Shown here: piece after piece, positions 24,040-52,460 of the stretch
Position numbering within the stretch: the first letter of the stretch is position 1
How the letters are laid out: every line of letters starts with the position of its first letter
Assembly: GCF_004010195.1 (NCBI RefSeq)
Contig: NC_057753.1
Location: forward strand, 3,689,514-3,753,513
Direction: 5' to 3'
DNA from: Chiloscyllium plagiosum
Lineage: Eukaryota
DNA: 64,000 nt
Translations under genes and position numbers: made by a program
Notes under the pieces: generated by a model
Databases searched by the model: none
What the model was told of the DNA's origin: nothing
Seen by the model: the letters and a program-made list of their open reading frames with translations, nothing else

Positions 24040-25320
24040 GTTTGCAACTCAAAGTTCAGAGGCAGTTCTGAGATCCACACTATAAGAGAAATATTATAGC
24101 ACTGGAGAGGGCGCAGAGGGATTTTGCCCAGTTTTGAGAATTTCAATGATGAGAAGAGATTTGATAGACCGGGGTTGTTTCCGTCAGAGTGGAGGGGATT
24201 GACAGGCACATTGATGAGATGTATCAAATGACGATGGGCATAGATAGGATAGACAGGAAGAAACTTTTCTCTTTCATGAAGGTATCAATGATGAAGGGTC
24301 ATAAGGTGAGGGGCAGTAGGTTCTGAGGACGAGAAAGAAAAATGAGGATGGTGAGAATCTAGAATCTGCCTGTACAACGCAGAAATCTCAACAAATCGAA
24401 GTAGTCATTGCGATGTCAAGACAGACTATGCCATGGGCAAAGGGCTGAGTAATGCGACTCGAATAGTTAGGTGAATGTTTTTGACCCGTGAACACTCAAT
24501 GGGCCGAAGGGCCTTTTTTCTGAGCTGTTAGGCCACGGTGATGCTAGAACAGGAATGGGGATTGGAAAAGTGCGAAATCAGTTCGTCGTAATGTGGAAGG
24601 CAAGGACGACAGTTAAATGACTCAAGATGAAACAATCGTGCCAATGTCTCATAATAAGGACCTCAAATCTGACTTCTTATGTGGGGATTTTTTTTTCTGA
24701 GTGATCAAAGTGATCAACCATGAAGTCTGGCGTCCTCTTGGTTTGGAGAGGGATTATCTGACGGACAGAAAACAGAGGGCCTTTATAGTTTGGTTCTTCA
24801 TTGAAAGGCGAAACGTAACAGGTGGAGCACCTATTGGATCAGTTACTGCGCTGCTATTGTTAACAATCGATGTACTTGATCAGCAAACAGGGACAGATGC
24901 AACAGAGCAACATTTATGGATGATATTGAAATAGGTTGCAAATGTCAGATAGTAAGGATGAGATAAAGAGTTTGCAGGTGGATATTGATAGTCTAAGAGA
25001 ATGGGGCACAATGTGGCAGATGCTGTTTAATGTGAATAGGTACGAGATTGTCCAGTTTGACTGGAAAACGAAGAAGGGCAAATTATTATTTAAATGGGAA
25101 TCAAATTCAAAGCGCGTCAGTGCAAAGGGATCTGGATGCGCTTGTGTATGAATCACAGAAAGTGGGCATGCAGGTGCAGCATAAAACAAAAAGAAAAAGA
25201 CACATGGTGTTCTGACATTTATTACAAAAGGACTGGATTATAAAAGTGAAGAAGTGCTTTTACAATCATGTTAGGTGTTGGTGAGAACACACCTGGAGTG
25301 TTGCGTTCAGGTTTTGTGTT
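24040..25320 (+). mobile_element. Old CR1-type LINE fragments (intron of gene B)
   Basis: YLTDRKQR...VTGGAPIGSV; LQVDIDSLREWGTMWQMLFNV. Confidence 0.7.
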
Positions 25321-25358
25321 GCCTGATGTGTACTTTTATTGCTTTTCCTTCCTTACAG

Positions 25359-26245
25359 TTAACATAATAACAATAGTGATCCTATCTCGCAACAAGTGTG
25401 GGCTCTCCACATGTGTCACCTATTACCTGGTGGCCATGGCAGCAACAGATCTACTGGTCATTATCATCGACTTGATATTGAGACAACTGCCAATCGTTTA
25501 TTTCGTCCATTTTATCTTCCTTGAGTCTATCCCCATCTGTAATATTCATGCCGTTCTGCTTTATGCAGTCACTGACTGTTGTGTCTGGTTCACAGTCACC
25601 TTCACCTTTGATCGATTTTTGGCCATCTGTTGCCAGAAGCTGAAAAGCAAATATTGCAACGCGAAAACAGTCGCTGTGTTTCTAGGAACAGTGACAGTAC
25701 TGAGCTGTTTAAAGAACACTTTCTGGTACTTTATGTTAACAGATCGGTATTGGTTGTTGAACAGGCCCTGGTTTTGTCGTGTAAGCGAAGACGTTCGGAA
25801 ATCTCGGGTCTGGGTCACAATCGAGTTTCTCCATCACATTCTCACCCCGGCTCTCCCGTTCGTCCTGATTCTGCTGCTGAATATTTTCACTGTCCGACAG
25901 ATTCTTGTGACCAGCAAAGCCCGCGGGAGGCTCATTCGCCAGAGCACCAGCGACCCAGAGATGGAGAGTCGAAGGAAATCCATCATTTTACTCTTTGTCA
26001 TCTCAGCAAATTTCGTCCTGCTGTGGTCAGTGATAATGATGTATTCGGTTTGGAGCCGAATGTCGTCTTTAGGCTATCTGTCTATCTGGTTACATGATTT
26101 CGTCCAGGAATTAGGCTTCATGTTGCAGCTCCTCAGTTGCTGCACGAACACTCTGATTTATTCCGTGACCCAGACGAAGTTCAGAGAGCATCTGAAGACT
26201 GTATTGAAATATCCCTGCACTCCCATTATTCGACTCACTCAATAA
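25359..26245 (+). CDS. GPR139-like GPCR gene B, coding exon 2 (spliced product 339 aa)
   Basis: ttttccttccttacag acceptor, in frame with exon 1 (133+887=1020 nt). VNIITIVILSRNKCGLS...YYLVAMAATDLL...TFDRFLAICC...DPEMESRRKSIILLF...CCTNTLIY. Confidence 0.92.
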
Positions 26246-42532: not shown

Positions 42533-42854
42533 TAAAATTCTGTAACAACACTGAAAGTGTCTGTACGTAGGTACCCTGTACCGAAGATGGCACCGAGAGT
42601 TCATGTGCACGTGAGAATAAAGTCTATTCTGATTCCTCGGTGGTACCATGCTTTCTGTCTTATGACCAGTCTGATACCTTTTTGACCACTTGCAAGTTTT
42701 CCTACTTTGATAGTATTAATTTTAATCTTTTCTTTTGGATTGATGATCACAATTTCACTCAATTTTTAATCTTTTGTTTTGGATTGACCAACACAATTTC
42801 ACACCCTTTGGGGTTCAATTGAAATTAAATTAGTTTAATTGTTGCACACATTAT

Positions 42855-42990
42855 CCCTCCAACCAATGGGTGAGCAGGATTGGGTGGGGCTGAGGGACCA
42901 ATCGGGAGCGGCGGTCCTCCAACCAATGGACGTGAACGAGAGGCGGGACTAAGGTGGGACCACGTGATCTCCCGCGCACTCAGCTACGCG
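42855..42990 (+). promoter_or_regulatory. CpG-rich TATA-less promoter (probably of the downstream ZNF gene)
   Basis: CCAAT at 42863, 42898 and 42923, ATTGG at 42879, GC-box-like aggcggga at 42941, E-box CACGTG at 42961, sharp rise in CpG density. Confidence 0.7.
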
Positions 42991-43034
42991 CAGGTGCAGT
43001 GTTGCTGCAAGAGTGGTCTCCTTCCGAGACGGCG
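42990..43034 (+). other. Probable non-coding first exon (start approximate)
   Basis: Strong donor GCG|GTGAGT at 43035 just downstream of the promoter motifs; no ATG in the segment. Confidence 0.55.
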
Positions 43035-43218
43035 GTGAGTGAGCGGGCTTGATGGCGAGTCCCAGCGGCGACGAGGAGCGAAATGGATACAGTGTAGAAT
43101 ATGAGGTTGTATAAACCTCGGCTGTATTCCCTAAACCCGAATTAGAAACTCCTAGTCCTGGGTTTGCAGCAAACGAGAAAATGGCTGCAGGCCTCAGGCA
43201 GGGATTGGCCGAGGTTTC

Positions 43219-43510
43219 CGCCGCCATCTTTGTTGGGGGAAGGAGTGCTGCGTGATGTGCGCGCGGCGGCCATCTTTGTTGGGGGACGGAGTGCTGCGTG
43301 ATGTGCGCGCGGCGGCCATCTTTGTTGGGGGACGGAGTGCTGCGTGATGTGCGCGCGGCGGCCATCTTTGTTGGGCGACGGAGTGCTGCGTGATGTGTGC
43401 GCGGCGGCCATCTTTGTTGGGGGACGGAGTGCTGCGTGATGTGCGCGCGGCGGCCATCTTTGTTGGGGATGTCGTCTCGCGAGATGTGTGCGCGGCCGCC
43501 ATCTTTATTC
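43219..43510. repeat. 46-bp CpG-rich tandem repeat (about 6.3 units) with seven YY1-type GCCATCTTT motifs
   Basis: Unit ggccatctttgttgggggacggagtgctgcgtgatgtgcgcgcggc; CCATC cores at 43224, 43270, 43316, 43362, 43408, 43454 and 43499. Confidence 0.92.
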
Positions 43511-43950
43511 GGGGCACTGATCACCAGGAGCCTCATTCAAGGGGAGGATTATCCACAATAAATTGAAACTGTAAGAAGTGTTTGTTTCTTCTGAGTTAAA
43601 AATCACACAACAGCAGATTATAGTCCAACAGGTTTAATTGGAAGCACTAACTTTCTGAGCGATGCTCCTTCATCTGGTGGATCCTAACACAGAATTTATA
43701 GCAAAACTTTACAGTGTCATGTCACTGAAATTATACATTGAAAAATTGATTGTCTGTTAAGCCTTTCATCTGTTAGAATACAGTGATAGTTTCACTTCTT
43801 TGCTCAAAAACTGCATGCATTCATGTAGAACTCTGAGCTCAAAAACTGCATGAATTTATGTAAAACTCTGTTATTTCACTTTTTAGATTGGAATCAATCT
43901 AAACATCAGGTCATAGACAGAGAACACGGGGCTAACACCTTCAACATATT

Positions 43951-49341: not shown

Positions 49342-49947
49342 AATTCACATCTAAGCCTCTTGTACATTTTTTTTTTTTACTTTTTTAAAACTGTCTGCCT
49401 GAGTTACTGACCCCTCCACTAATTAGAATAGATTCCCCTTATCTGCCCTGTTCATCAGCCTCATAACGTTTCACACCCCAGTCAGATACCTCCTCAGCTT
49501 CGTCTGCTCAAAGGAAAACAACCCCAATCTGTCTGTTCTCTCTTCGAAGCTAAACCACTCCAGCTCGGACAACATTCTGGAGAATCATATCTGCACCCTC
49601 TCAGGTGCAATTACATTCTTGTGCTGAGACAACCAGAACTGCACGCAATACAGTAGCCCGCTGAACTAGCATTATTTTCTGCACAGTCATAACCTTGGTC
49701 GTGTATTAGATACCTTGACTGAATAAAAGTCAAATACCGCATTTGCCTTCTGAATCACCTTATCAATCTATCCTGCTGCCTTCAAGGATCTATGGACACA
49801 GACACTCTGTCTCTCCGAACCTCCATATCTCCCACGGTCATACTGTTCGTCATGTGCTCCCTTCTTCGAACACACCAGAATGCCTCACCTCTGAAACTTT
49901 ATTGCTGGAACAGCACAGCAGGTCAGGCAGCATCCAGGGAACAGGAG

Positions 49948-49983
49948 ATTCGACGTTTCGGGCACAGGCCCTTCTTCAGGAAT
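49948..49983 (-). ncRNA. Minimal hammerhead ribozyme motif (PLE family B)
   Basis: auuc-CUGAAGA-A-GGGC-CUGU-GCCC-GAAA-CG-UC-gaau. Confidence 0.75.
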
Positions 49984-50163
49984 GAGCAGAGAGTGTTCAG
50001 CAGGAGAAGATAAAAGGTAGGGAGGAGGGACTTGGAGGAGGGGCGTTGGAAATGTGATAGGTGGAAAGAGGTCAAGGTGAGGTACCCTACTCCGACCTAT
50101 CACCCTCACCTCCAAGTCCCTCCTCCCTACCTTTTATCTTCTCCTGCTGAACACTCTCTGCTC

Positions 50164-50199
50164 ATTCCTGAAGAAGGGCATGTGCCCGAAACGTCGAAT
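50164..50199 (+). ncRNA. Minimal hammerhead ribozyme motif (PLE family B)
   Basis: auuc-CUGAAGA-A-GGGC-AUGU-GCCC-GAAA-CG-UC-gaau. Confidence 0.75.
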
Positions 50200-50549
50200 C
50201 TTCTGTTCCCTAGATGCTGCCTGACCTGCTGTGCTGTTCCAGCAATAAAGTTTCAGCTTTGATCTCCAGCGTCTGCAGACCTCACTTTCTCCTCGAAGAA
50301 TGCCTCACCTGTCAACTCCCCTTGAAAATTCCTTATGGATTCAGGGTTCTCCACACCTTCAGGTGGAATGTTCCAACTGAATGGGAGAGAGTGGAGAATT
50401 GAAATAACAAGTCACTGTAACGTCAGGATGCAGCTTATGGACTGAACAGAGGTTGTGACCATTCAGTCTGTGTTTGTTGGTTACAGTGTCAAGCAGATCA
50501 CACCACAGTGAATACAGTAACTGATTTGCCAGAGGTATGTGAAAATCAC

Positions 50550-50972: not shown

Positions 50973-51164
50973 GGAGGAAGATTTACACCTTTGCTCAGCT
51001 CAGTTTCAAAACCGGCTTTTGCGTTTTGTTTGACGCTTTTTTTTTCTTCTGAATTTATCGACAGGGTATTGGAAAGGGAAGACTTGCGGTTCTGAAACTG
51101 AAACCAACGATCACCCTGGGATCTGACAGAGATATTGCACCCTCCGTGTAATCTGACTGTGCAC

Positions 51165-52460
51165 ATGAATGAAAACAACACGGACCCCGGTGGGGAGAAA
51201 CCATACACATGCGCTGTGTGTTTCCGAAGTTTCAGCCAATCGGCTGGCCTGTTAAGACACAAGTGGAGCTGCGATGGAGAGAAGCAGTGCAAATGCGGAG
51301 ACTGTGGGAAGGGATTCAATTACCTGTCTGAGTTGGAAACTCATCAACGCAGTCACACCGGGGAGAGGCCGTTCCCCTGCGCTGAATGTGGGAAAGGATT
51401 CACTCGGACCTCCGAACTGCTGAGGCATCAACGGGTCCACACTGACGAGAGACCTTTTAAATGCTCGGATTGTGGAAAGTTCTACAAAAGCTCTGGGGAG
51501 CTGACCTCCCATCAATTTGTTCACACCGACGAGACGCCGTTCAGATGTTCTCAGTGTGGGACTGGGTTCAGAAAATTGGATTACCTTCACCGACACCAGC
51601 GCATTCACGGGGAGAGGCCGTTCCCCTGCCCTGAATGTGGCAAGGGATTCACTAACACATCCCGCCTGCTCATACACCAGCGTGTCCACACTGGGGAGAG
51701 ACCATTCACCTGCTCTGAGTGTGGGAAGGGTTTCACTCAGTCTTCTCACCTTCTGGAACACCGTCGAGTTCACACCGATGACAGACCTTTTAAATGTCCA
51801 GACTGCAGCAAGTGCTTTAAAAGTTCCGGGGAACTAATATCCCACCAACGTATTCACACTGACGAGAGACCGTTCAGGTGCTCTCACTGCGGGACTGGCT
51901 TCAGGCAATCATCTCAACTCACTGCCCACCAGCGAGTCCACACTGGAGAGAGGCCGTACAGCTGTCCCAAGTGTGGGAAGGGATTCACTCACTCATCCCA
52001 CCTGCTGACACACCAGCGAGTTCACACCGGGGAGAAACCATTCGCCTGCTCTGTGTGTGGAAAGCGATTCAGTCACTCGTCCACCCTGCTGACGCACCAG
52101 CGAGTACACACTGGGGAGAGGCCTTTCACCTGCACCAAGTGCGGGATTGGATTCACTCAGTTATCTGCCCTGCAGACCCACCAACGGGTTCACAGTGGCG
52201 AGAGGCCTTTCAAATGTCCCGATTGTGGGAAGTGTTATAAAAGTTCCCAGGGGCTGACATCCCACCAAAGTGTTCACACGGGGGAGTGGCCCTTCGCCTG
52301 CTCCGAGTGTGGGAAGGGCTTCAGTCAGCTTTCCGGCCTGGTGACACACCAGCAGGTTCACACTGGGGAGAGACCATTCACTTGCACCATTTGTGGAAAG
52401 GGATTCACCCGATCGTCCAACTTACTGAGGCACCGAGGAGTTCACAAGTCACTGCAGTGA
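51165..52460 (+). CDS. Tandem C2H2 (Krueppel-type) zinc-finger protein, 15 fingers, about 431 aa, no KRAB/SCAN/BTB domain
   Basis: Intact ORF with 14 canonical CxxC...HxxxH fingers, one N-terminal C2HC finger and TGERP linkers. Acceptor tttcttctgaatttatcgacag ends at 51064; the first ATG of the exon is at 51165. Confidence 0.93.

Follow-up and report, generated by a model that had tools for sequence, protein, structure and literature searches.

A 46-bp minisatellite of predicted YY1 sites in a CpG island 8 kb upstream of a Chiloscyllium plagiosum zinc-finger exon

The window, the 64,000-nucleotide stretch of C. plagiosum DNA analysed here (contig NC_057753.1), contains a single large CpG island whose 3′ part is a tandem array of predicted YY1 sites, with an intact zinc-finger exon downstream. 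The features of this region are as follows, in window coordinates.

42821–43580, no strand assigned: CpG island of 760 bp, GC 0.58, 62 CpG, o/e 1.03
42856–42929, plus strand: CCAAT cluster, with boxes at 42863, 42883 (minus strand), 42898 and 42923
42961–42966, no strand assigned: E-box CACGTG
43032–43040, plus strand: predicted first splice donor GCG/GTGAGT; the intron would begin at 43035
43178–43185, plus strand: single YY1 core AAAATGGC, in the opposite orientation to the array
43219–43514, plus strand: 46-bp minisatellite of 6.4 copies with seven GCCATCTTT cores; units 1–5 near-identical, unit 6 diverged, unit 7 partial
43220–43231, plus strand: outer site 1, long form GCCGCCATCTTT, carrying the methylation-sensitive C
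43266–43461, plus strand: five inner sites of form GCGGCCATCTTT, in which G replaces the methylation-sensitive C, giving the AAGATGGCCG form of the human L1 YY1 site
43475–43484, no strand assigned: perfect BANP/ZBTB33-type word TCTCGCGAGA in unit 6, its sole copy in the window
43495–43506, plus strand: outer site 7, long form GCCGCCATCTTT
43568–43576, plus strand: weaker candidate donor ACT/GTAAGA just past the array, possibly the end of an alternative first exon
51038–51064, plus strand: predicted acceptor, a pyrimidine tract and AG, with a coding exon from 51065
51165–52460, plus strand: intact 431-aa C2H2 zinc-finger open reading frame from the first ATG past the acceptor, with 14 Pfam zf-C2H2 stretches

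The zinc-finger reading frame had no Pfam match to KRAB, SCAN or SET. Database searches with its protein returned generic zinc-finger proteins, the best identity among the matches listed being 60% (a sawshark protein, P0069). No orthologue was found among the matches listed, one search having scored 8000 candidates, and none of these matches indicated a special tie to PEG3; neither of two forms of the exact protein had an identical entry in the protein collection. Part of the zinc-finger exon was present in 20 of the 24 sequencing runs listed, and half or more of it in 16 (eight studies); none of the listed runs containing it was an RNA run, which says nothing either way about expression. Elsewhere in the window, the other long non-repeat reading frames checked were two single ones encoding rhodopsin-family receptors (Pfam 7tm_1; 945–1976 and 25250–26245). 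The predicted intron also holds a near-perfect inverted repeat about 0.8 kb before the acceptor (49891–50256; 153-nt arms, 97% complementary, 60 nt apart), possibly an RNA hairpin or editing substrate.

Six stretches of the window qualified as CpG islands at a 200-bp filter, and only 42821–43580 was longer than 300 bp. Because this is the only large island, and an intact zinc-finger exon with an acceptor lies 8 kb downstream, it is likely the natural promoter candidate for the zinc-finger gene. The part of the island outside the repeat (42850–43218) has an o/e of 0.82 alone, versus 0.44 for the window, suggesting that the island may be unmethylated in the germ line. The plus strand of the window has five G/GTRAGT words, the predicted donor at 43035 among them. 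NF-Y, YY1 and ZBTB33/BANP-type motifs belong to the standard promoter lexicon (bioRxiv 10.1101/2024.05.28.596138); the BANP/ZBTB33-type motif used here was taken from PMC9363121, which reports that the BANP word is functional in zebrafish. A 14-bp word containing a CCAAT box occurs twice, at 42856–42869 and 42916–42929, one of several short local duplications in or flanking the promoter region (42720–42807, 44 bp; 42856–42929, 14 bp; 43797–43866, 35 bp). An isolated AAGATGGC core lies at 42584–42591, about 400 bp upstream of the predicted start.

The original prediction had put the array at the start of the probable first intron of a C2H2 zinc-finger gene, about 185 bp after a GTGAGT donor that follows CCAAT and E-box motifs, with an extra YY1 core near 43178. 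The motifs, the donor (GT at 43035, 185 bp before 43219) and the extra core were all found as described, and the setting looks like that of a gene 5′ end: the single large CpG island contains a cluster of CCAAT boxes and a donor, and an intact zinc-finger exon preceded by an acceptor follows 8 kb further on. The intronic position itself, however, depends on a splice from the predicted donor to the zinc-finger exon at 51065, which we infer from these signals.

Since the seven array sites amount to one site copied, motif enrichment was assessed after removal of units 2–5, and the remaining 497 bp were shuffled 5000 times. This collapsed sequence held four YY1 cores, three of them still related by duplication, versus a shuffle mean of 0.068, and no shuffle in 5000 reached four. 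The long form GCCGCCATNTT was seen twice (0/5000 shuffles), TCTCGCGAGA once (5/5000) and CCAAT five times (26/5000); neither the E-box (491/5000) nor the donor (358/5000) was significant alone. The stretch 42821–43580 is a CpG island with promoter motifs above chance.

Tandem Repeats Finder delimited the array at 43223–43514 (period 46, 6.4 copies, 93% matches, score 484). On the plus strand its GCCATCTTT cores start at 43223, 43269, 43315, 43361, 43407, 43453 and 43498, a spacing of 46, 46, 46, 46, 46 and 45 bp. The core sequence that defines a YY1 cluster, GCCATNTT, is present in every unit (7/7), and GCCATCTTT is identical in all seven, including units 6 and 7 despite their divergence. Units 1–5 vary in just 5 of 46 columns, each changed in one unit alone, so that sparing of the core among these units tells little about selection. 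Unit 6 differs from unit 2 by seven substitutions and one gap, and unit 7 matches the unit over its first ~23 bases only. Descriptions of the array as CpG-rich (38 CpG, o/e 1.32 versus 0.44 for the window) and as composed of good YY1 motifs were borne out, whereas ‘seven near-identical units’ applies to five, the others being one diverged and one partial. The array had also been called phased, which is accurate for its even spacing but not for helical phase: 46 bp corresponds to 4.4 helical turns, placing neighbouring sites on different faces of the helix and ruling out helical phasing. Two other readings of the array were rejected. Rfam gave no match near threshold and predicted folding was the same as that of shuffled sequences (49/100 as good, z −0.15), arguing against a structured RNA; minus-strand reading frames across the array shift at each unit, since 46 is not divisible by 3, arguing against a coding role.

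Head-to-tail units of 46 bp at one locus, within the ~10–100 bp range of minisatellites and with no further copy in the window, identify the array as a minisatellite. Were the unit instead derived from a dispersed mobile element that has nothing to do with the promoter, related copies would be expected elsewhere. When metagenome contigs were scanned for a 19-base segment of the unit, 22 loci were returned, of which 11, from two assemblies, seem to represent one dispersed element of ~230 bp; the other 11 look like chance matches. Grouping of the ~230-bp element relied on blastn for five loci, which were tied to locus L004, and on inspection by eye for the remainder of the other ten. Exact matches to this element are at most 24 bases long, however, and identity ends at 24–25 bases, 19 of which are the query itself, so that none of the 22 loci is homologous to the array beyond 25 bases. 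A blastn comparison of the whole window with all 22 loci gave no match at E 1e-4, no second copy of the unit lies within the 64 kb, and no terminal inverted repeats flank the array. We therefore regard a mobile-element origin as very doubtful. The ~230-bp element is an observation in its own right: it is dispersed and non-coding (L004, L006, L009, L011–L014, L016–L018 and L022), carries an inverted pair of YY1-like words ~60–70 bp apart, has at most 24 bases in common with the repeat unit and might, as a guess, be a MITE of an animal host. Separately, a ~134-bp unit is repeated in tandem at ~900–2250 of contig L015, which is probably bacterial; the units have arms resembling hairpins and 3′ ends resembling those of tRNA.

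The seven array sites fall into two forms. A C directly precedes GCCAT in only 2/7, the outer sites 1 and 7, whose long form fits the high-affinity YY1 motif quoted in PMC11602158. The other five, all inner (sites 2–6, starting at 43266, 43312, 43358, 43404 and 43450), read GGCCAT, with the CpG moved one base outward. In gel shifts, YY1 binding is blocked by 5mC on the same-strand C that precedes GCCAT (PMC11602158, PMC1904287). The proposal that the array is a methylation-sensitive YY1 platform is not supported, the five inner sites having G in place of the sensitive C; an array of the Peg3 type would carry the sensitive CpG of CGCCAT at each site, and here it is present in 2/7. Units 1–5 also contain a changed, non-matching version of the BANP-type word. 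Judged by these motifs, the amplified part of the array is the part least suited to methylation sensing, because its inner sites have G for the sensitive C and its BANP word has been lost. The inner sites should still bind YY1, perhaps less well than the long form, because the human L1 YY1 site has the same G before GCCAT (PMC8887483), and YY1 binds in vitro to a probe with G at this place (PMC1904287, probe 5 in the set 5–7). A C-to-T change before GCCAT reduced binding at least 4-fold in a Tf probe (PMC11602158), and the amplified inner form may therefore be a weaker YY1 site. The DNA-binding domain of YY1 is reported to be strongly conserved among animals, sharks not being among those named in the source.

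On balance, we lean towards the reading that local minisatellite expansion turned a single predicted YY1 site into several at the downstream margin of a CpG island that is likely the constitutive, housekeeping-type promoter of the zinc-finger gene; YY1 bound there on both alleles would raise transcription modestly, the effect levelling off as copies accumulate. The underlying history would begin with an older stretch, two long-form YY1 sites around a BANP word, that was duplicated; one duplicate would then have diverged, losing the BANP word and exchanging C for G before GCCAT, and the derived unit would recently have been amplified to five copies through slippage or unequal crossover. In the working promoter, NF-Y and E-box factors would set the transcription start near 42.98–43.01 kb, yielding a short non-coding exon that ends at 43034. 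Unmethylated copies of the unit would be bound by YY1 on both alleles, and YY1 on the intron-side array would serve as a built-in enhancer that helps to keep the island open.

Published precedents led us to this reading of a modest boost on both alleles. YY1 motifs are a typical feature of constitutive promoters, where they serve as built-in enhancers, with strong YY1 binding at 29% of the class, and the effect of added YY1 motifs saturates at ~5 copies, as quoted in the same source (bioRxiv 10.1101/2021.10.23.462170). At Peg3, the tandem YY1 sites increased reporter activity 1.7-fold; the effect scaled with their number and was confined to one orientation (PMC2615030). Mouse L1 Tf monomers activate jointly, and were likened by the authors to the built-in enhancers of housekeeping promoters (PMC11602158). 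By analogy, the array likely works as an activator, as the Peg3 intron-1 repeat and L1 Tf monomers do. Weighing against such a boost, the array lies ~200–500 bp past the predicted start, and YY1 is reported to activate best just past the start, with sites further downstream repressing or doing nothing (PMC11269187, PMC13017510, PMC3491394). In the work described in PMC13017510, promoters that were already strong showed no response to added YY1, and the seven array sites, as copies of one site, are not independent.

Because of the same distance from the predicted start, a passenger minisatellite is a serious rival: the promoter would be real, and the extra copies a neutral by-product of GC-rich slippage that adds nothing or slightly dampens expression. 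The amplified unit lacks both the BANP word and the long YY1 form, its spacing is out of helical phase and other short duplications lie nearby (the 44-bp, 35-bp and 14-bp pairs), all as expected of a passenger, and high-baseline promoters are reported to be unresponsive to YY1 (PMC13017510). Against this, a YY1 core arose in only 53/20000 shuffled units, although units drawn from promoter DNA are enriched for such cores beforehand; the core was retained through the older divergence of units 6 and 7; and dosage effects of such sites are known at Peg3 and L1 Tf (PMC2615030, PMC11602158). Overall, we judge the passenger reading to be somewhat unlikely.

The minus strand raises another alternative. 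Each unit reads AAGATGGC on that strand, and the BANP word lies upstream of five of these cores, an order that would suit initiation within the array itself. The array would then produce antisense RNA directed towards the main promoter, or, in the sense direction, an additional first exon whose 3′ end would be the weak donor at 43571. YY1 motifs are described as directing initiation to positions immediately 5′ of the motif in a strongly strand-biased manner (bioRxiv 10.1101/2024.05.28.596138); one class of YY1 sites overlaps start codons, implying AAGATGG on the sense strand (PMC3491394); zebrafish BANP words lie 20–70 nt upstream of starts (PMC9363121); and in the sense direction the GTAAGA donor is 87 bp past the BANP word. 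However, no minus-strand gene lies nearby, the frames there being repeat-derived only, minus-strand donors are weak and the donor at 43571 has no exon-side matches, making an initiation zone improbable.

The comparison originally drawn with Peg3 holds in one respect, in that same-orientation YY1 arrays are dosage-dependent activators there (PMC2615030). The likeness needs no special explanation, however, because downstream YY1 sites are common in constitutive CpG-island promoters (PMC13017510, bioRxiv 10.1101/2021.10.23.462170, PMC11269187). We considered the stronger possibility that a cartilaginous fish independently evolved a Peg3-like switch, in which a first-intron YY1 array, reading methylation through its two outer sites and the BANP word and differing between alleles or germ lines, sets expression. 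Methylation of such an element would be bimodal or would differ between alleles, in a lineage with no known imprinting. The locus does share the Peg3 layout: its tandem repeat lies in a CpG island near a first exon, here a predicted one, with the sites all in the same orientation, and a predicted first intron and a zinc-finger gene are further shared elements (PMC4196374). Methylation-sensitive types of motif are represented by outer sites 1 and 7 and by the BANP word (PMC11602158, PMC9363121), and the array holds 38 CpGs. Yet the sensitive C is missing from 5/7 sites, the zinc-finger protein has no special tie to PEG3 among the matches listed, and Peg3 averages 10 sites over 2.5 kb that are kept across mammals (PMC4196374), whereas the array here is 0.3 kb long and young. 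A layout of this kind can arise by simple slippage and therefore is not, on its own, the mark of an imprinting control region. Nothing found in the window points to imprinting-like control of the zinc-finger gene, and among the papers listed by a literature search conducted mostly outside subscription journals, none described this array, nor YY1 arrays or imprinting in cartilaginous fish. We accordingly consider a methylation-switched element of this type extremely improbable.

Read as a promoter booster, the array is a tidy natural case of minisatellite expansion multiplying a promoter motif, and could readily be used to test the dosage of downstream YY1 sites in a non-mammal. Its significance would grow if methylation of the array differed between alleles, or if shark zinc-finger genes commonly carried such an array in their first introns.

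The array can be compared with several known types of YY1-bearing sequence. Like the first-intron array of the Peg3-DMR (CSE2), it is a tandem repeat with several same-orientation GCCATCTT cores that lies in a CpG island and in the (here predicted) first intron of a C2H2 zinc-finger gene (PMC4196374, PMC2615030). The Peg3 sites, however, are GGCGCCATCTT, with the sensitive CpG in each, and lie within a known imprinting control region, whereas here seven sites are packed into 0.3 kb, five of them lack the sensitive CpG and units 1–5 are young; the likeness implies no homology. The array also resembles the 5′UTR monomers of mouse L1 Tf, which are arranged head to tail with one YY1 core each and GCCAT on the monomer consensus (PMC11602158). 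Those monomers are much longer (the motif occupies nt 77–88), form a retrotransposon promoter and retain the sensitive CpG, in contrast to a 46-bp unit that is confined to a single locus in the window and lies downstream of a separate CCAAT promoter. The human L1 5′UTR YY1 site has the AAGATGGCCG form of the five inner sites, but is single, near the start of the element and oriented with AAGATGG on the sense strand (PMC8887483). Finally, as in constitutive CpG-island promoters, the YY1 motif lies 3′ of the (predicted) start and is accompanied by NF-Y and BANP/ZBTB33-type motifs. In such promoters the YY1 sites usually number one to three and lie no more than ~50 bp from the start (PMC3491394 counts 88 promoters with a single site, 6 with two and 4 with three), whereas the array described here comprises seven, tandem-amplified and 200–500 bp downstream.
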